Source: a virus (lineage: Duplodnaviria; Heunggongvirae; Uroviricota; Caudoviricetes). From it: a stretch of DNA of 11,769 nt. A program made the position numbers and the translations under genes. Below, piece after piece: positions 1-9,728 of this stretch. Every line of letters starts with the position of its first letter. The first letter of the stretch is position 1. The notes below the pieces were generated by a model. The model was not told the DNA's origin. It did not search any database and saw only the letters and a list, made by a program, of their open reading frames with translations. The stretch lies in the IMG/VR virus record IMGVR_UViG_2740892233_000023. One strand, given 5' to 3'.

Positions 1-19
1 CTAATTGATAAATAAAAAA

Positions 20-1315
20 TTAACTTTTCATCGCTTCGTTATGGGGCATGGTTGGGGCAAACTCGCTTAACTGTGTATTTAACAGCGTTACCTGCGCATT
101 ATTATTTTCTGACATCCATTTCCCGTACACCTGAAACACCATTTGCGCATCTGCATGGCCCATCTGGTTTGCAATGAATGCCGGGTTAGCTCCTGCTGTT
201 AACGACCAGCAGGCATAAGTGTGTCTCGACTGATACGATTTGCGATGGCGGATTCCGGCACGCTTTACCGCTGCGTCCCACATCTGCCTTATTGAGTCAA
301 CGGTAAAATGGTCACCATAATTTTTTACTTTCGCTGACACTTCAGGTTGAAAAACAAAGGTACATTTTTGTTTCTCTGTTCTGCCGAATTCTCTGAGGTG
401 AACATCGATGATATGCTCTTTGCTCAGTCTCGTTAGTGCCATCTGACTCCGGAGAGCGTCGATTGCGGGCTTAATAAGGTGAATCACACGATTGGTTCCC
501 GCCTGTGTTTTTGGTACTGTAAAACGGTCTTTTGCCAGATTTCTTCTGATTATCATTGTTCCATTTTTCAGATCTATATCTTCCCATCCAAGCGCACAGA
601 GTTCACCAGGGCGAATCCCAGTATAAACGGAAACACACCATAAATTTTTGGCTTGCTGATTTCTGCACGCGTCAATAAGGCGGATAAACTCCTCCCGCGA
701 AAGTGGATCCGGGATGGTTCTCGACTCCTTTAATGGTGAGATCCCCTTAAATGGATTGTCTGCCAGATAACCGTTATCAACACCAAACTGGAACACGGCG
801 TAAAGATTTGTCATGTAATTATTTACGGTAACAGCCGATCTCCCTGGTTGTGTAACAATATAGTTACTTTTGGGGATCTGGTATCCAGTCAGTAACTCTT
901 TACGTACCGCCAGCAATTTTTCTTTATTAATCGATGATGCAAGATTTTTTTCACCGATTATGCTCAGAATATTTTTGATGACGGCACGGTACGTGTTGAG
1001 TGACGTTTTTGCGACTTCAGTTTCTTTCAGTGCCAGAAATTTTTCAGCCAGTTCTTTTATGGTTAAATCTTGTCGGGCCTCACCAAATTTTTCCAGATTG
1101 TGTGAGGCGGGAAACTGTTTTGCATAGTCGAAAGCGCCAGTTTTTATTGCGTAACAAACAGAGGCGCGTAGCTCACCTGCAATGCGCCTGTTTTTTGCTG
1201 TGTCAGGAACCCCAAGATTTTCCCGGACTCTTACACCTTTATAAACAAACCAGATACGTAATTTCCCTCCATGGTTTTCCACGCCTGTCGGATATTTCAT
1301 TTCAGCTTCTCTCAT
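20..1315 (-). CDS. int: Phage tyrosine integrase (lambda-Int-like, with N-terminal arm-binding-type region)
   Basis: 431-aa minus-strand ORF. The C-terminal region has the tyrosine-recombinase pattern (…SRHTYACWSL… then …MVFQVYGKW… with the candidate catalytic Tyr). It sits at the prophage end directly downstream of an excisionase-like gene. Family call from motifs and synteny only. Confidence 0.9.
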   Translation of the reverse strand: MREAEMKYPTGVENHGGKLRIWFVYKGVRVRENLGVPDTAKNRRIAGELRASVCYAIKTGAFDYAKQFPASHNLEKFGEARQDLTIKELAEKFLALKETEVAKTSLNTYRAVIKNILSIIGEKNLASSINKEKLLAVRKELLTGYQIPKSNYIVTQPGRSAVTVNNYMTNLYAVFQFGVDNGYLADNPFKGISPLKESRTIPDPLSREEFIRLIDACRNQQAKNLWCVSVYTGIRPGELCALGWEDIDLKNGTMIIRRNLAKDRFTVPKTQAGTNRVIHLIKPAIDALRSQMALTRLSKEHIIDVHLREFGRTEKQKCTFVFQPEVSAKVKNYGDHFTVDSIRQMWDAAVKRAGIRHRKSYQSRHTYACWSLTAGANPAFIANQMGHADAQMVFQVYGKWMSENNNAQVTLLNTQLSEFAPTMPHNEAMKS

Positions 1316-1334
1316 TGGTTCGTGTTGCTTTTAG

Positions 1335-1586
1335 TCAAGCAAGATGACGTCTTGGTCTTGCAGATGCCTGGCGCTCAATCCAGCGATCAATTTCTTCCAG
1401 GTTGTAAAAGCATGGACTGTTATCCCATGGCATACCGTCATGAGCGACATGCTTATATTCCCTTCCTTCCATAAACGATTTTTCCCGGGCCTTTTTTAAC
1501 GTACCTTTTTTTATTCCTTTCAGCGCAATTAACTGCTCTTCGGATACCCATTTGCCGGGAGAGACGATCATGATTACTTCGCTCAT
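1335..1586 (-). CDS. xis: Excisionase-like protein (YdaQ/XisR-like)
   Basis: 83-aa minus-strand ORF immediately upstream of int in the same orientation; small basic protein. The start could be the first ATG (1586) or the second ATG (1571); both have weak SD context. Confidence 0.75.
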   Translation of the reverse strand: MSEVIMIVSPGKWVSEEQLIALKGIKKGTLKKAREKSFMEGREYKHVAHDGMPWDNSPCFYNLEEIDRWIERQASARPRRHLA

Positions 1587-1615
1587 CGCTTTCTTTATCT
1601 CTTACATCAGACGAG

Positions 1616-1647
1616 CGCCGGTTGCAGAATACCAGTCACAACCGGCG
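1616..1647. promoter_or_regulatory. 9-bp-stem inverted repeat (CGCCGGTTG / CAACCGGCG, 14-nt loop) in the exo-xis intergenic region
   Basis: Seen directly in sequence. No U/T tract follows on either strand, so it is not a canonical intrinsic terminator. Possible RNA processing or protein-binding site. Confidence 0.3.
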
Positions 1648-1658
1648 ACAGTTGAACA

Positions 1659-4600
1659 TTAAGAATCAGCCTGACTCGGGATCAGTTTTTGCCAGATAAC
1701 TGAAACGTATTTTGCCTGGTAACGGGCGTCATCAAGTGCATTATGGCGCTCACCTTCGAATGGAATAGCCGTTCTGGCATCGAAGTCTATGGCTTTCCCC
1801 AGCTCAACGATTGTGCGTACATCGCGATCGTTGTAGTAACGCCACGGGCAGGGGATCCCCTGCCGTTCGTATGAACGGCGCAAAATCGTGTTGTCGAAGT
1901 TGGCTCCATTTCCCCAGACCTGAACAAAAAATTCACCGGAGTTTTCGTCGATAAATTCCCGCAATTGTAACAGTGCATCATCTAACGGGATTTCATCGGT
2001 CATAATGGCAGATTGCGCTTCGCGTGATTGCTTAAGCCACCATTTAATGGTGTCCCGATCAATGACCCCGCCAGCAGTTTCCAGATCGATAGTCTTACTA
2101 AATTCCGGCCCCATATCTCCGGTTTGCGGATCGAAAAATATTGCACCTATTGAGATGATCGGGGCATCAGGATTTTTTCCCATGGTTTCAAGGTCGATCA
2201 TTAGATGGTCACACGTCCTGCNNNNNNNNNNTCCGCCAGCAGTTTCCAGATCGATAGTCTTACTAAATTCCGGTCCCATATCTCCGGTTTGCGGATCGAA
2301 AAATATTGCACCTATTGAGATAATCGGGGCATCAGGATTTTTTCCCATGGTTTCAAGGTCGATCATTAGATGGTCACACGTCCTGCTGGTGGATGTGATT
2401 TCTTGATGACCGTTCACCTTAATTGAGTGATCTGCCGTCTCGCCAGTTTCATTATCGCTATCGTGATGCTGATTGCCGTCAGTGTTCTCCTTGTGTGGAT
2501 GTTCAGCGCCTTCCATTTCCTCCGGATCATCTTCCTGAACTTCAACCTGATACTCTTCATCGAATGTTTCCTGGTATGTTGCGTCGCCCATCACCGCGCC
2601 ACAATCAGGGCAGTTGCCGCNNNNNNNNNNAATGCGATGACCGTTCACCGTAATTAAGGGATCTGCCGTCTCGCCAGTTTCACTATCGCTGGCGTGGTCC
2701 TGAGCGCTGCCAGCATTCTCCTTGTGTGGATGTTCAGCGCCTTCCATTTTCTCCGAATCGTCTTCCTGAACTTCAACCAGGTTCTTGTCATCGAATGTTT
2801 CCTGGTATGTTGCGTCGCCCATCACCGCGCCACAATCAGGGCAGTTGCCGCCGCCGGTCTGACCGCAGGCGGTGCAGACTTTTTCCGGTTCCTGTTGCGC
2901 TACTGGCTCAGGTTGTTTCGTTTCTGGCTCGTTTTGTTGCGTATTTGGGCTGTTTTGTTCCGCTTTCTGGTCGTTCTGTTCCGATTCTTGCTGGTTCTGG
3001 TTTACAGAATCGCGGGTTTCAATCCCCTTTACCCATTTCGGATCATTCGGGTCGCTAATCCCTGCAACAAATTCTCCGCGAGAGGCAGCAAGCAACTTAT
3101 CGGCGTCAGGCTGGCTGATATTGGCTGCCTGCATAATTTTGTTTACTTCGTCAGCGGTAANNNNNNNNNNACTCCTCTGACCGCAGGCGGTGCAGATCTT
3201 TTCCGGTTCCTGTTGCACTACTGGTTCAGGTTGTTTCGTTTCTGGCTCGTTTTGTTGCGTATTTGGGCTGTTCTGTTCCGCTTTCTGGTCGTTCTGTTCC
3301 GTTTCTGGCTGATTCTGGTACACAGAATCGCGGGTCTGGATCCCCTTAATCCATTTCGGATCATTCGGGTCGCTAATCCCTTCAACAAATTCTCCGCGAG
3401 AGGCAGCCAGTAATTTGTCTGCATCGACAGGATTTTGGGGCGGAATGTTTTTCCGGGCTTCATGGAGTTCTGCCCGCAGTTTCTGATATTTCGCATCAAC
3501 AGAATTTACCTGTGACTGAGCATCCAGCGGCTGCGTGTCCTGATGATGTTCAGTTGCATCCGGTTCCACTGTTTCAGCCGTTGCCTGTTCATCTGCCATT
3601 GCGCAAGATGGTTGCGGTTTTTCTTCATCATTTTCTTCTTCTTCTGTTTCCTGCTTAGCAGCCAGTTCGCGGTTAACTTCTTCCAGGATATCTTTTTCCG
3701 GTGTATGTCGTGCAGCAGTGAGAGTTTCCTTGCTGGGGTTCTCGTGATCAGTCTCCGTTAAGTAGGCGTTGATATACCCCTGAAGGCGTCCCGGGTAGTG
3801 ATAAAACTCAGGGTGAGCGCTCCGGATAAGTGCAAAAATAGCGGCGCGGGAATAGTCCAGAATACCCGGGGTTGCGCGAAGTGCTGCGGACCATTCTTTG
3901 AACGGACTTTCTCTTTTCAGGACGATTTCTTTTGCGCGACGATAAACGCTGCCCGGAATTTCATAAATATTAAAATCCATCGGAAGTGTGGCTGCTGCAA
4001 TCTCCACATCCAGCGTATCGAAGGTGTGTACTAAATTCGGATTGCGATCGGTTTTGTTCCCGCCACCGGCATTTGCACCGGAAGCCGTACGGGTGATACG
4101 CGAAACACGATTTCCTTTCATCCACTCTTTTGTCAGCAGACCCCGATCAGTGTAGTCAGCGTCCAGGTATGCCTCGAAAAAAGCAGTTATCAGTCCCAGG
4201 TCTGAATTACCGGGATTAGGGAAAACTTTGTCAGTGTCGCGTGCCAGTTTATGAAGGTCGCGAATCTCCAGCGGGTCGAGCAGCTTTGTGTTGTGGGAAA
4301 TGGCCAGGGCAGTAACAGCCGGCAGTTCTTCCGCCCGTGCTATATGTAATGCCTGAAGTTCTTCCCGTGCAACGTGCGTTACTGGTTTTTCGCTGCCGTG
4401 TTGCGCAAGCCAGCGAATGGGCAGCTCCTGACCAGAAACCGGCAGGAGCATATTCTCCTCAATCTCCGTCATGTCTTCGCCGTTGACGTTGGTATTGTCA
4501 GTACTGGCTGGTTTCTCCTGCACGGAGGGAGAGGGCGCGATAAATACCATTGTAATGCCATCTTCCCCGCCTTTTTCGTATCGGTTGCAGAATTCGGTAT

Positions 4601-4835
4601 CAAACACGCCTTCAGGTGGAAGGTCATTCACAACGGGTAAATGGACGCGAACGGGTTTTTTAAAGTCGTCTTCATCATAATCGTTGTCATCCATTGCGGT
4701 AATGCAGCGGGAGATGGCAACAGATAATTTTTTTGCTGTAGTCCAGTAAAAACCACCTTTAATTCCCAGACGTTTTCTGACTTTGTCATTTTTTGCTTCG
4801 CAATATAGCGCAAATTCTTCTTTATCAGTGCTCAT
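1659..4835 (-). CDS. Prophage exonuclease: RecE (exonuclease VIII) N-terminal-like region fused to a C-terminal DEDDh (DnaQ-like) 3'-5' exonuclease domain; ORF crosses three N10 runs
   Basis: Long minus-strand ORF with GAGG SD 9 nt upstream of ATG at 4835. The N-terminal ~600 aa resemble the non-catalytic N-terminal part of RecE-family proteins (from memory). The C-terminal ~180 aa carry DEDDh motifs: Exo I MIDLETMG, Exo [13 protein letters not shown], Exo [15 protein letters not shown]. Protein length is unreliable because the N10 runs at 2222-2231, 2621-2630 and 3161-3170 are flanked by duplicated sequence; the true protein is probably about 830 aa. Confidence 0.8.
2222..2231. other. N10 gap flanked by ~154-bp near-identical copies (2068-2221 vs 2233-2386, 2 mismatches)
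   Basis: Direct comparison of flanking sequence; the copy offset is 165 bp (a multiple of 3). Confidence 0.95.
2621..2630. other. N10 gap flanked by ~228-bp diverged copies (about 2393-2620 vs 2631-2860, roughly 88 percent identity)
   Basis: Direct comparison of flanking sequence; the copy offset is 231 bp (a multiple of 3). Confidence 0.95.
3161..3170. other. N10 gap flanked by ~270-300-bp diverged copies (about 2861-3160 vs 3171-3440, roughly 92 percent identity; ends diverge)
   Basis: Direct comparison of flanking sequence; the copy offset is 318 bp (a multiple of 3). Confidence 0.95.
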
Positions 4836-4927
4836 TGATAAACCTCATTACAGATTTAAGGGTGAACAAATCCCTGCCATTGCTGGCATTTTTAATCCGT
4901 TGGTATGGTGTTAATATGGCTGGAGGG

Positions 4928-5116
4928 TTATCCAGCCGGTGTTTCGTTATTCAGGTACAGCGATACTTTTTTTACCGGGAGGCATTCACCAGAAATTTTT
5001 TGCTCGTCTCTTGCCTGGAGGCAGGATTCTTTACTGGCATAAATTCCGGTAATCACATTCTGTGATTCACCCGTTATAAGAAAAACCGTCATCATCAGTG
5101 CAAATGCTGAAGTCAT
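4928..5116 (-). CDS. YdfD-like small membrane protein (62 aa)
   Basis: Minus-strand ORF whose ATG overlaps the dicB-like stop (ATGA). N-terminal hydrophobic segment (AFALMMTVFLITG) and two Cys. Position immediately downstream of dicB-like matches the Qin-type ydfD position. Family call from memory and synteny. Confidence 0.6.
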   Translation of the reverse strand: MTSAFALMMTVFLITGESQNVITGIYASKESCLQARDEQKISGECLPVKKVSLYLNNETPAG

Positions 5117-5301
5117 TGACGTTCTCCGAAAATACCAAGTTCAAGAAGAGCAATTCGGGAAAGTATGGAATTATCATTGAGCAGATAAGGCTCATATTTC
5201 CTCATATTAATGGCATCTTCAGTAAACTCCCGGTTACTGAGCAGAACACCAATATCAAAACAACCTTCAGACGTATTAACGTTTGGTAATAACGTTTCCA
5301 T
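5113..5301 (-). CDS. dicB: DicB-like cell-division inhibitor (62 aa)
   Basis: Minus-strand ORF starting at ATG 5301 with GAGGA SD 7 nt upstream. Product METLLPNVNTSEGCFDIGVLLSNREFTEDAINMRK… matches the remembered DicB family (LLPNVNTSEGCF…FTEDAIN) in length and sequence. It lies directly downstream of a DicF-like sRNA, as in the Qin dicB operon. The ORF-track GTG-start extension to 5406 is not needed. Confidence 0.75.
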   Translation of the reverse strand: METLLPNVNTSEGCFDIGVLLSNREFTEDAINMRKYEPYLLNDNSILSRIALLELGIFGERQ

Positions 5302-5470
5302 TATCGCGTCCTCAACAATGAATTTTGTGATGCGGTGCCTGGTGCCTCCAGGTGACGTTAACCAGTTAACAATTAACGCCGGATACAGAGAATCCACCCA
5401 TAACACTGTTTTTGGTTTTAACTGTTCCGCGTGCGCTCAGCCGCATTCACCACATCACAAAATTCACTTT

Positions 5471-5528
5471 AAAAAGGGCGGCAGAGCAGTCACGGAGTAA
5501 AACTGATACCGCCAAACGTCACCAGAAA
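5471..5528 (-). ncRNA. dicF: DicF-like sRNA (copy at end of contig before N-run)
   Basis: Minus-strand sequence TTTCTGGTGACGTTTGGCGGTATCAGTTTTACTCCGTGACTGCTCTGCCGCCCTTTTT matches the remembered 53-nt DicF sRNA followed by a U-run. Located upstream of dicB-like in the same orientation. Confidence 0.7.
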
Positions 5529-5554
5529 ATTGATAACAGAGGGCGTTGCAGCGG

Positions 5555-5564
5555 NNNNNNNNNN
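5555..5564. other. N10 gap; the ~116 bp before it (5439-5554) are repeated after it (5566-5681) with 3 differences
   Basis: Direct comparison of flanking sequence; both copies end at the same point (…cgttgcagcgg) before an N-run. Confidence 0.95.
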
Positions 5565-5597: not shown

Positions 5598-5655
5598 AAA
5601 AAGGGCGGCAGAGCAGCCAAGGAGTAAAACTGATACCGCCAAACGTCACCAGAAA
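5598..5655 (-). ncRNA. dicF: DicF-like sRNA, variant copy (2 substitutions, CCGUGACUG to CCUUGGCUG)
   Basis: Second copy of the DicF-like sequence on the short segment between two N-runs. It may be an allele or paralogue brought in by contig concatenation rather than a second gene in the same genome. Confidence 0.55.
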
Positions 5656-5681: not shown

Positions 5682-5691
5682 NNNNNNNNNN
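5682..5691. other. N10 gap (junction between DicF-containing segment and twin-hairpin/cassette contig)
   Basis: Seen in sequence; no overlap detected across this junction. Confidence 0.95.
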
Positions 5692-5801: not shown

Positions 5802-6035
5802 ATGTTAAAATCAACTCTTATTGCTAAATGCCTTTATCAAAATCGCATGGTAAGCAGCATTTCAATAGGCGAGTCTGCAGTTAAAAGTATTTTCGAAGAG
5901 TACTTTCCCGGGCATGATTTTAATAAATGGAATACCAAATTACCGCCAGCAGTTTCAACGCGTATTCTGAAAGCAACCGAAAGAGCAAGTACAATTCGCG
6001 TTAACTATTTCATTAAAGATTTGTGGGATCTTTGA
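5802..6035 (+). CDS. Hypothetical protein (77 aa), AT-rich, inside variant-specific cassette
   Basis: Plus-strand ORF with GGAGGG SD 4-5 nt upstream of ATG. It is convergent with the 135-aa minus gene (23-bp 3' overlap) and no competing long ORF lies on the other strand. No recognisable family. Confidence 0.4.
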   Translation: MLKSTLIAKCLYQNRMVSSISIGESAVKSIFEEYFPGHDFNKWNTKLPPAVSTRILKATERASTIRVNYFIKDLWDL

Positions 6036-6420
6036 TATCCACAGAGCCTAAAGTATGTGCATATGGATGTGCTATTATGCGCCCTCGCAGATTTGCATCA
6101 TTTTCTAAATTCACTGAACGAAACAGGGCATCAACAAGGCTCTGTACAATGCAAAGGCAATCGAAGACTGTCGCCGTTTCTGTTTTGATTGATGAAAGAA
6201 CATGGCCATTCACGCAAACAGAAATTACCCGTTTATTAACATCGCTTTCCTGCTTTTGATTATCAGAACCATATAGCCCAGAAAAAGCATTGCGCACATT
6301 ACGAACCATATTATCGATGGTTTCTTTTTCTGCGGTACTAAGGTCAAGAGTAGCCAGTTGTGAACGAACTATATTCGATGCCATTTCCTGTAATGGCGTT
6401 GGTAAATCTTTAAATTCCAT
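6013..6420 (-). CDS. Hypothetical protein (135 aa), AT-rich, inside variant-specific cassette
   Basis: Minus-strand ORF with ATG at 6420 and GAGG SD 8 nt upstream. It follows a truncated ydfC-like 3' end by 22 bp. No TM segments or recognisable motifs. The plus-strand ORF 6023-6259 is treated as its shadow. Confidence 0.55.
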   Translation of the reverse strand: MEFKDLPTPLQEMASNIVRSQLATLDLSTAEKETIDNMVRNVRNAFSGLYGSDNQKQESDVNKRVISVCVNGHVLSSIKTETATVFDCLCIVQSLVDALFRSVNLENDANLRGRIIAHPYAHTLGSVDIKDPTNL

Positions 6421-6513: not shown

Positions 6514-6523
6514 NNNNNNNNNN
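6514..6523. other. N10 gap flanked by repeated ~85-bp segment (6429-6513 vs 6777-6862)
   Basis: Direct comparison of flanking sequence. Confidence 0.95.
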
Positions 6524-7619: not shown

Positions 7620-7675
7620 CAATTTACAAATTAAAATTTAACTGGTCAACATGTTTATTATTAAATTTGTAATTG
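7620..7675. promoter_or_regulatory. Imperfect inverted repeat CAATTTACAAATT … AATTTGTAATTG with central AACATGTT palindrome, upstream of higB-like
   Basis: Seen in sequence; AT-rich with a candidate -10 (TATTAT at 7656-7661). Shares the 12-mer AAATTTGTAATT with the immunity operator region at 8904-8915. Confidence 0.45.
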
Positions 7676-7717
7676 CGGGCTGTTGCATCAGTCCCAAAAT
7701 GGGACTACTATACAGTT

Positions 7718-8020
7718 ATGAAGATTATCTCAGTTAAAACACTCAGGGATTTTTGGGCGGAGAATCCTGATGCAGAACAACCGCTAAGGGCATGGGTGGA
7801 TGAGGCGGCAAAAGCTGACTGGAAAAGCCCAGCAGACATTAAGGCACAATACCGAACGGCCAGTATATTGAAAAACCGGCGCGTGGTATTCAACATAAAA
7901 GGTAATCATTACCGTTTAATTGTTGCAATTGCGTATCAGCGAGGATGGGTATTTGTTAAATTCATCGGAAACCACAAGGAATACGATGCTATTGATGCTG
8001 ATACCATCGAACTGGAGTAA
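7718..8020 (+). CDS. higB: HigB-family toxin (RelE/ParE-superfamily mRNA interferase), ~100 aa
   Basis: ORF from ATG 7718 with motif …VFNIKGNHYRLIVAIAYQRGWVFVKFIGNHKEYD… resembling HigB toxins. It lies immediately upstream of an HTH antitoxin-like gene (toxin-first order, typical of higBA). No clear SD; the TTG at 7673 is an alternative start. Confidence 0.75.
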   Translation: MKIISVKTLRDFWAENPDAEQPLRAWVDEAAKADWKSPADIKAQYRTASILKNRRVVFNIKGNHYRLIVAIAYQRGWVFVKFIGNHKEYDAIDADTIELE

Positions 8021-8022
8021 GC

Positions 8023-8382
8023 ATGAACATCAAACCTATTCGTACAGAGCAAGATTATGAAGCCGCGTTGCGTGCTGTTGAACCCATGTTCGACAATGAG
8101 CCCGAAATTGACACGCCTGAGGGGGATTTTTTTGAGGTGATGTGTTTGCTAATAGAGGAATATGAAAAAAAACATTATCCCATTGAGCCACCATCCCCAA
8201 TTGAAGCTATAAGATTTCGCATGGAACAGCAGGGGCTGACTGTGAAAGATTTGGAACCCGCAATTGGGAAAAAAAATCGGGTTTATGAGGTGTTGAATGG
8301 TACCAGAAGCCTTACGTTACCAATGATTCGCCGTCTTCATAATCAATTTGGTATCCCCCTGGAAAGCCTGGTTGGATTATAA
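8023..8382 (+). CDS. higA: HigA-family antitoxin (HTH, XRE-type), 119 aa
   Basis: ATG 2 nt after the higB-like stop, with GGAG SD. C-terminal HTH …GLTVKDLEPAIGKKNRVYEVLNGTRSLTLPMIRRLHNQFGI… resembles HigA antitoxins. Confidence 0.75.
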   Translation: MNIKPIRTEQDYEAALRAVEPMFDNEPEIDTPEGDFFEVMCLLIEEYEKKHYPIEPPSPIEAIRFRMEQQGLTVKDLEPAIGKKNRVYEVLNGTRSLTLPMIRRLHNQFGIPLESLVGL

Positions 8383-8398
8383 AATCTGCTAGTCATTT

Positions 8399-8447
8399 GC
8401 CTGATGCTCGTTCCAGAAAAGGAATGCATCAGGCAGTTTTGTTTTTC
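8399..8447 (+). terminator. Intrinsic terminator for the higBA-like transcript (overlaps the 3' end of the repressor gene)
   Basis: Stem GCCTGATGC / GCATCAGGC with inner TTCC/GGAA stem and AGAAAA loop, followed by AGTTTTGTTTTT on the plus strand. Confidence 0.55.
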
Positions 8448-8821
8448 TGCCGCAGTAACTCTTCAAGTTTCCGTTTATAGAAATCGCGTTTTTGCTCCAT
8501 ATCACGAATGATCTGCTCTGCGTCGCTTTGAGGTAACTCATCTAAAAGCGATATGATTTTTCGTTGTTGTTCTGTAAGTTGCGGTTGGTTGTCATTACTG
8601 GATACAGCCATTTTATCGCCGAGAGTTTCTTCTTCCATAAAGAACCAATGGACGGGATGTTGTGAGAGCTCTGCTAATTTTTCCAGTTTATCCATTCTTG
8701 GCATCACGCCTTTCAACCAACCTTGCACGGATTGGGGTTTTACACCAAGACGTCTTCCCAGCTCTGACTGGTTTATATTCAATTCCTGCAACACCTGCTG
8801 AAGGCGTTTTACAAAGATCAT
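8429..8821 (-). CDS. Prophage repressor, DicA/RacR-like (N-terminal HTH, no S24 peptidase domain)
   Basis: Minus-strand ORF; likely start is ATG at 8819-8821 with GAGGGG SD. HTH …NQSELGRRLGVKPQSVQGWLKG… and a C-terminal region resembling the DicA C-terminus (…LPQSDAEQIIRDMEQKRDFYKRKLEELL…). Divergent from a Cro-like gene. Confidence 0.8.
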   Translation of the reverse strand: MIFVKRLQQVLQELNINQSELGRRLGVKPQSVQGWLKGVMPRMDKLEKLAELSQHPVHWFFMEEETLGDKMAVSSNDNQPQLTEQQRKIISLLDELPQSDAEQIIRDMEQKRDFYKRKLEELLRQKNKTA

Positions 8822-8874
8822 CACCACCCCTCGTAAACTAGTTCCGCGATCCTACAGAAAAAATTGATAAGTGG

Positions 8875-9642: not shown

Positions 9643-9728
9643 TATTTATGCCAGACCCCTGCTGATTCTGTTGATTGGGGAATCACAGAATATCACCAGA
9701 GGATGGTTCGTCACAAGATGAGGCAATT

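Follow-up and report, generated by a model that had tools for sequence, protein, structure and literature searches.

A RecE-like protein of lambdoid prophages that carries a DexA-type DEDDh exonuclease domain and has no annealase gene beside it

We analyzed an 11,769-nucleotide (nt) stretch of Caudoviricetes DNA (IMG/VR record IMGVR_UViG_2740892233_000023, hereafter the window), in which the minus strand at 1659-4835 carries an exonuclease gene, the last gene before xis and int in a repressor-controlled leftward operon. The gene product joins RecE-like N-terminal and middle parts to a C-terminal DEDDh exonuclease domain of the DexA type, and no annealase gene accompanies it in any of the contexts examined. 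Judged by its sequence, the protein probably works like a DexA/ExoX-type enzyme of family PF16473 and is not a RecE, because three defining features of RecE were tested and none was found. We favor, with modest confidence, a function as a stand-alone 3'-5' processor or degrader of DNA ends during lytic growth, as opposed to a SynExo-type recombinase. The gene is real, widespread and already annotated in databases.

The open reading frame (ORF) in the window is longer than the gene it represents. It runs from ATG to stop over 1058 amino acids (aa), and 10-N spacers interrupt it at 2222-2231, 2621-2630 and 3161-3170; with three more at 5555-5564, 5682-5691 and 6514-6523, the window is a set of short-read contigs chained by six such spacers. 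The flanks of the three spacers within the ORF repeat each other over 154, 216 and 250 nt, and the reading frame was kept by chance across all three joins, so that overlapping contig ends inflate the ORF and the length of 1058 aa is an assembly artefact. The preliminary description of the gene at 1659-4835 is confirmed. In the complete genome NZ_CP101292 (locus L001), the true gene has 2463 nt and encodes the 820-aa ‘exonuclease’ WP_000102128.1. Window positions 1-2221 and 3171-5554 map to this single locus with 99.8-99.9% identity, and the protein encoded by the two outer contigs is 100% identical to WP_000102128.1. The two inner contigs are only 93-96% identical to the same locus and are thus paralogous copies from sister prophages. 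The parts of the ORF are as follows.

3171-4835, minus strand: genuine 5' contig, aa 1-555 (DNA 99.8%, protein 555/555 identical to L001), encoding the RecE-like N-terminal region, an acidic Gln/Glu/Pro-rich linker and the first cysteine pair of a zinc ribbon
3192-3194 and 3183-3185, minus strand: C548 and C551, the first cysteine pair of the zinc ribbon, on the 5' contig
2631-3160, minus strand: first paralog contig, about aa 455-631 of a sister gene with the zinc ribbon complete (95.6% identical to L001 9736-10194); it overlaps both neighboring contigs and is foreign to this gene copy
2232-2620, minus strand: second paralog contig, half of the zinc ribbon, linker and start of the DEDDh domain from a type B-like copy (93% identical to L001 9568-9956); its translation resembles the linker of phage record HannyBb, and it is the source of the artefactual duplication
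1659-2221, minus strand: genuine 3' contig, aa 635-820 and stop codon, the DEDDh (DnaQ/DexA-type) exonuclease domain

Draft assemblies routinely break within this exonuclease gene, which appears in protein databases in thousands of ‘partial’ versions; the homologues retrieved with the N-terminus were all partial E. coli fragments of near-identical sequence. Early in the DEDDh-coding sequence there is a Chi site (GCTGGTGG), at window position 2385 (in the duplicate copy), at L001 9721 and at 26330 of HannyBb (L003). In L001 the site ends at 9728, six bases beyond position 9722, where the window contig end 2221 maps.

The first two thirds of the protein follow RecE closely. BLASTP aligned aa 58-623 with residues 50-592 of K-12 Rac RecE at 62% identity and found no similarity past RecE residue 592, and the DNA homology with Rac recE ends at about codon 622. 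The RecE equivalog model (NCBIfam NF007259) was matched only over model positions 1-603 of 877, scoring 996.5 bits, under its cut-off of 1269. A four-cysteine zinc ribbon (C548, C551, C559 and C562) aligns with C517, C520, C528 and C531 of RecE. K-12 RecE carries PF12684 (PDDEXK-like, DUF3799) at aa 615-850, whereas neither this nor any other PD-(D/E)XK family was matched by Pfam in the 820-aa protein. Since the similarity stops at RecE residue 592 and PF12684 begins at 615, we place the exchange point in the linker just before the RecE nuclease domain, downstream of the zinc ribbon common to both proteins. Two features describe the N-terminal region in the window.

4269-4667, minus strand: match to Pfam PF06630 (Exonuc_VIII), aa 57-189 (E 5.1e-34, profile positions 48-203 of 203)
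3651-4835, minus strand: folded multi-domain N-terminal region, aa 1-395

Beyond the exchange point, the protein belongs to a different nuclease family. Pfam PF16473 (Rv2179c-like) matched aa 639-810 over the full-length profile with an E-value of 2e-67 (226.7 bits against a gathering threshold of 27), and the scan also returned a weak RNase_T match. The motifs MIDLETMG (2178-2201, with a duplicate at 2343-2366), GANFDNT (1887-1907) and HNALDDA (1725-1745) contain the DLET, NFD and HNALDDA strings that had been quoted as DnaQ-like in the preliminary description. The residues of Exo I (D-x-E), Exo II (D) and Exo III (H-x4-D) are all present, and the five catalytic residues are invariant in an alignment with T4-type DexA and stand-alone homologues.

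2193-2195, 2187-2189, 1893-1895, 1743-1745 and 1728-1730, minus strand: catalytic residues D643, E645, D743, H793 and D798 of the DEDDh domain

The AlphaFold2 model of this domain (predicted local distance difference test, pLDDT, 89.8; predicted template modeling score, pTM, 0.87) has a DexA-like predicted fold. Its top Foldseek match in the PDB is T4 DexA (8KEL; E 1e-11, template modeling score 0.75), followed by RNase T, oligoribonuclease (Orn), REXO2 and Cap18 with probability 1.00, and no PD-(D/E)XK fold occurs among the structural matches of the C-terminal domain model. DexA was also the sole PDB sequence match in phmmer (E 1.7e-6). Profile and predicted fold thus agree with the initial assignment of the C-terminal domain to DEDDh and not to the RecE nuclease fold. 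Exonuclease activity on DNA in the 3'-5' direction has been measured for T4 DexA and for EcD, its homologue in E. coli (PMC12153337), and from its family the domain described here would be expected to digest 3'-to-5', opposite to RecE, most probably on DNA.

The same family and fold could also serve a 3' exoribonuclease, similar to Rv2179c, RNase T or Orn, acting on operon transcripts, on small RNAs (sRNAs) such as DicF or on nucleotide immune signals. PF16473 is named for the exoribonuclease Rv2179c, RNase T, oligoribonuclease, REXO2 and Cap18 are the structural neighbors after DexA, the sRNA gene dicF lies in the same operon, and the sequence does not separate RNA from DNA as substrate. The closest relative with biochemistry is nevertheless T4 DexA, a DNA exonuclease, and the scaffold to which the domain is joined derives from a DNA exonuclease as well; we consider an RNA enzyme a weak rival and very unlikely.

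The surroundings of the gene in the window comprise the following features.

20-1315, minus strand: tyrosine integrase (Arm-DNA-bind_2 and Phage_integrase)
1335-1586, minus strand: excisionase gene xis (DUF1233; excisionase in the L001 annotation), immediately downstream of the exonuclease after a gap of 72 nt
4928-5116, minus strand: ydfD-like gene (DUF1482), the next one upstream in the leftward operon
5113-5301, minus strand: dicB, 62 aa as in L001 (PF05358 on aa 36-97 of the listed ORF, which extends to 5406)
5476-5527, minus strand: DicF sRNA (Rfam RF00039; two copies score 76.7 and 71.5 bits), the second match at 5603-5654, minus strand, arising artefactually from the contig overlap at the N-run 5555-5564

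In Rac, the order of genes is intR-xisR-rcbA-ralR-recT-recE. The preliminary description had found no recT-like or ralR-like gene between xis and the exonuclease, while allowing that one might emerge once the N-runs were resolved. None did in the complete genomes: in NZ_CP101292, which is free of Ns, xis adjoins the exonuclease with nothing between them. The order int-xis-exo-ydfD-dicB without recT was found in seven contexts, namely L001, a second prophage with the immunity region of the window (L007), four further complete genomes (L008-L011) and HannyBb, whose complete record of 45 kb was deposited as that of a phage. No annealase family of Pfam or PHROG was detected in the ORFs between the exonuclease and the repressor in the window, the complete genomes or HannyBb. 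Among one-genome-per-species representatives, we found the full-length fusion in about 30 loci of at least 14 enterobacterial genera, including Escherichia, Shigella, Enterobacter, Citrobacter, Klebsiella, Kluyvera, Pluralibacter, Kosakonia, Buttiauxella, Phytobacter and Leclercia. In 30/30 of these fused loci, the gene is followed within about 350 bp by a xis-sized ORF and by an integrase, the latter belonging to one of three families, and in 29/30 a cI/DicA-like helix-turn-helix repressor lies 0.75-2.9 kb upstream on the same strand. Homologues of RecT, RalR, RcbA and the RecE C-terminal domain (RecE-C) are absent within 6 kb in all 30, and the conserved ORFs between exonuclease and repressor encode at most 163 aa. 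Altogether, no annealase gene of the RecT/Redbeta, ERF, Rad52/Sak or Sak4 type was found next to the exonuclease in the 37 contexts examined.

Several other genes near the exonuclease recur. In non-E. coli genera, in 17/30 loci (L035:5458-5838 and 16 others), an ORF for a 126-aa Rrf2-like winged-helix protein lies 160-200 bp upstream of the fused exonuclease, and in 9/30 (L032:4968-5459 and eight others) a 163-aa phrog_13002 protein stands in its place; either could be a conserved partner or regulator. A 135-aa ORF at window positions 6013-6420 (minus strand), on a separate small contig between N-runs, and a 212-aa protein at L001:12863-13501 (minus strand) have a common N-terminal module (phrog_1363, phrog_2151) and are encoded midway along the leftward operon, in the region that holds Rec and kil genes in lambda. 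A HigB/HigA toxin-antitoxin pair on the plus strand of the window (7673-8020 and 8023-8382) separates this operon from the gene of the cI-like repressor (8429-8827, minus strand), an arrangement likewise annotated in L007. A fused copy with 87% identity over its full length occurs in a Veillonella parvula metagenome-assembled genome (MAG; L017), and stand-alone copies with 57-59% identity occur in a Geobacteraceae MAG (L051), an Actinomycetes MAG (L064) and Chryseobacterium (L093); these four copies, of enterobacterial type but in bins of unrelated phyla, are most likely mis-binned or contaminating prophage DNA.

We searched 5426 complete E. coli genomes by megablast for the DEDDh module, the PD-(D/E)XK module of RecE and recT, with these results.

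DEDDh module: 8111 places, up to 7 per genome, in 4069 genomes
RecE PD-(D/E)XK module: 1827 places in 1736 genomes
recT: 1842 places in 1749 genomes

The gene recT tracks canonical recE one-to-one and therefore cannot be the partner of the DEDDh form. The proposal that the architecture is widespread in Qin-like prophages holds for the DEDDh module, present in 4069/5426 genomes, but only about 1470 of the copies have the RecE-type extreme N-terminus. Two N-terminal types account for this. Type A, the form in the window, starts with MSTDKEEF and contains PF06630, while type B starts with MSKVFICA and is without PF06630; the two have only aa ~471-820 in common (linker, zinc ribbon and DEDDh domain, 83-91% identical), and over the first ~470 residues they are at most distantly related. 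The 5' end of type A was found at 1472 places against 6860 for type B (~4.7 times as many). In K-12, the Qin pseudogene ydfE (L012:5079-5999) is identical in 256/256 aa to the HannyBb exonuclease (L003:25769-28240) and then runs into IS2, so by its sequence ydfE is the IS2-truncated N-terminus of a type B DEDDh exonuclease, an identity that its annotation does not reflect. A descent of ydfE from the window-type protein was considered and rejected, BLASTP finding no similarity to the window-type N-terminus.

These counts bear on whether the protein is a recombination exonuclease after all, performing resection of reversed polarity or 3'-flap trimming together with host RecA, RecFOR or RecBCD, or with an annealase from a co-resident prophage. 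The gene occupies the exact recE slot upstream of xis-int and keeps the RecE N-terminal and middle regions, which in full-length RecE are cited as enhancing linear-linear recombination (PMC11611040). In epsilon34 and some other lambdoid phages, a stand-alone DnaQ-type nuclease is part of the canonical Rec module (PMC12315714), and Asadulghani et al. classed genes of this kind as an Exo VIII-type recombination system. Against this stand the absence of an annealase gene from all 37 contexts examined and the copy numbers of recT (1842), which match those of RecE-C (1827) and not those of the DEDDh module (8111). The 2025 survey that describes epsilon34 also leaves int-proximal DnaQ genes outside the Rec modules and, in a passage citing Lovett 2011, states that DnaQ-type 3'-5' exonucleases usually inhibit homologous recombination (PMC12315714). 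HannyBb has 5 + 2 Chi sites where about 0.85 would be expected per strand, a moderate enrichment that is not decisive and falls below the count of at least 18 typical of the ‘no Rec module, high Chi’ class. We regard a role in recombination as quite unlikely.

A decaying, non-functional remnant of RecET, or a mere assembly chimera, is hardly credible for the gene family. The 1058-aa ORF of the window is indeed chimeric, K-12 retains only the IS2-truncated stump ydfE, and among the Exo VIII-type systems of the Sakai prophages, Asadulghani et al. scored all but that of Sp10 as defective. However, every complete genome sampled and HannyBb carry uninterrupted ORFs, the seven sampled genes encoding 813-823 aa, and all catalytic residues are kept. 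In the most diverged pairs (synonymous divergence, dS, ~0.45), the ratio of nonsynonymous to synonymous substitution (dN/dS) in the DEDDh domain is 0.12-0.13, a value indicative of purifying selection, and the fusion is conserved over at least 14 genera. Because the ORFs are intact and dN/dS is this low, the gene is not a decaying remnant; the idea is contradicted for the family and applies only to the inflated length of the ORF in the window.

The abundance of the gene in E. coli prophages also invites comparison with nucleases that exclude other phages. A superinfection-exclusion or defense nuclease of the HREX/EcD type would degrade the modified DNA of T-even phages, for example DNA with 5-hydroxymethylcytosine (5hmC), to the benefit of the lysogen. 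The Pfam family and fold are common with T4 DexA, EcD degrades 5hmC DNA and protects against T4 (PMC12153337; Kang et al. 2025), and the neighboring gene dicB reportedly protects against phage when expressed. EcD is, however, a different, stand-alone protein: its primers show that it starts with MIDTET and ends with TIPETYD, and these termini were found in none of the 120 closest homologues. Of the two DexA residues proposed to recognize 5hmC, W152 aligns to Tyr and D169 to Ala in the window protein (with Asp 2 and 4 positions downstream, in a gapped and ambiguous part of the alignment), and the Asp90 lost in EcD is kept. PADLOC returned no match for the window protein and only a weak generic DEDDh match for its relatives. 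Expression in lysogens is not expected either, because the gene lies at the distal end of a repressor-controlled operon and has no promoter of its own above chance, the scan for promoters and terminators around it giving nothing above the shuffled expectation. We therefore think a defense function unlikely.

An exhaustive search of 1.84 billion cluster representatives found only 221 relatives of the RecE-like N-terminus, and among the best 150 of these, 15 end in DEDDh, about 30 in PD-(D/E)XK and 2 are fused to RecT, while many have no recognizable nuclease, some perhaps being truncated. The 2025 survey likewise mentions ‘RecE-2’ proteins without a nuclease domain (PMC12315714). With such varied C-terminal tails, the scaffold behaves as an autonomous module whose tails are interchangeable. 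One relative, P0243 (703 aa), has a RecE-type N-terminus (PF06630) followed directly, without an intervening nuclease, by a RecT domain (PF03837, aa 528-678) and could be either a deletion fusion or a real variant. Six others (P0248, P0252, P0262, P0270, P0290 and P0356) contain two tandem copies of the helical module that corresponds to aa ~130-240 in the window protein. One may go further and regard the scaffold as a nuclease-agnostic platform that would bring its catalytic module, whether PD-(D/E)XK, DEDDh or absent, to a particular DNA structure or partner in the host, with the DEDDh version, about four-fold more frequent than RecET in E. coli, as a self-sufficient 3'-end-degrading effector in lambdoid lytic growth. 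Such an effector would be a candidate for suppressing 3'-tailed recombination or SOS intermediates, or for destroying the 3'-ended nucleic acids used by host defenses. Either role would replace, and not degrade, the classical two-component recombinase. We hold this reading to be doubtful.

The explanation we prefer is narrower. The protein would be a modular early-left-operon product of Qin-like lambdoid prophages in which the cassette of PD-(D/E)XK nuclease, recT, ralR and rcbA has been replaced, at the linker (RecE residue ~592), by a single DexA-type DEDDh domain. With this domain, the enzyme would be expected to digest 3'-to-5' from free 3' ends, most probably on DNA, and to need no annealase of its own. 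Induction or infection would switch on its expression from the repressor-controlled leftward operon, along with that of ydfD, dicB and dicF, and its job would be to process or degrade DNA 3' ends in lytic development and not to start single-strand-annealing recombination as RecE/RecT does. This agrees with the survey of lambdoid phages, both in its statement on inhibition of recombination by DnaQ-type enzymes and in its placing of int-proximal DnaQ genes outside Rec modules (PMC12315714).

Several points weigh against it. Polarity and substrate are predicted from family membership, for this protein and for its fused homologues, and as the family takes its name from an exoribonuclease, the substrate may be RNA. 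Small neighbors without known function (the 135-aa and a 118-aa ORF, the 212-aa protein of L001 and phrog_13002) could hide a partner, and an annealase may come from another prophage in the same cell. The AlphaFold2 model of the RecE-like scaffold is confident (pLDDT 87.9) but yielded no informative structural relative in structure comparison, and no function is assigned to the corresponding region of RecE, its N-terminal ~600 residues (PMC11611040). By analogy, the scaffold may still be related to recombination, given that full-length RecE, N-terminus included, is cited as enhancing linear-linear recombination (PMC11611040).

RecE/RecT is the textbook recombinase and the workhorse of recombineering. 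In E. coli prophages, however, its scaffold or the YdfE-type alternative is joined to a DexA-type exonuclease without an annealase far more often than to the canonical nuclease with RecT. Many genes labeled ‘exodeoxyribonuclease VIII / RecE family’ should accordingly not be taken for 5'-3' recombination nucleases, and where the Exo VIII system of a prophage has been scored as defective, an intact function of another kind may be present. The K-12 pseudogene ydfE gains an identity, and the natural chimeras allow comparisons that could probe the function of the scaffold. The practical payoff is modest for now. PGAP names the fusion ‘exonuclease’, ‘3'-5' exonuclease’ or ‘RecE family exodeoxyribonuclease’, and PHROG families exist for it; in the literature, we found no description of the RecE-like::DEDDh fusion, of its dominance over RecET or of experiments on it.

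The fusion is best filed as a variant of known systems. With RecE of Rac (exodeoxyribonuclease VIII), it has in common the PF06630 region, the acidic linker, the four-cysteine zinc ribbon and the position in a leftward operon upstream of xis-int. It differs in its first ~57 residues, in the replacement of the 5'-3' nuclease domain (PF12684) by DEDDh and in its neighbors, since recT, ralR and rcbA accompany recE but none of them follows the exonuclease here. The annealase gene that stands next to the exonuclease in two-component viral recombinases such as RecE/RecT and lambda Exo/Beta is likewise not found. T4 DexA (8KEL/8KEN) and EcD (HREX) resemble the C-terminal domain in Pfam family, DEDDh residues and fold, although DexA is only ~27% identical and has extra loops that are absent here. 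Both stand alone, with ~190-227 aa, whereas the domain described here forms the C-terminal end of a protein of 820 aa. In EcD, moreover, the tetramerization residue D90 of DexA is replaced by Ala, giving a dimer-only enzyme, while the window protein keeps the Asp in the motif PLDDAL.

Closer relatives are found among phage nucleases. Stand-alone DnaQ-type nucleases from temperate phages of enterobacteria, such as PhiR55_1 and PhiR46_1, are 54-59% identical to the C-terminal domain and likewise lie in early operons, often near int, but are without the RecE- or YdfE-like N-terminal 630 residues. Relatives of this stand-alone kind occur in many phages and in varied DNA-metabolism contexts, some adjoining annealases or polymerases. 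The YdfE-type (type B) exonuclease of Qin-like prophages and HannyBb occupies the same slot in int-xis-exo-ydfD-dicB. The 2025 survey noted lambdoid phages with DnaQ-type nucleases next to int, which it did not count as Rec-module members, and its main text is silent on any fusion with a RecE-like N-terminus (PMC12315714); the exonuclease described here is int-proximal as well, in the order int-xis-exo in the window and in all sampled contexts.

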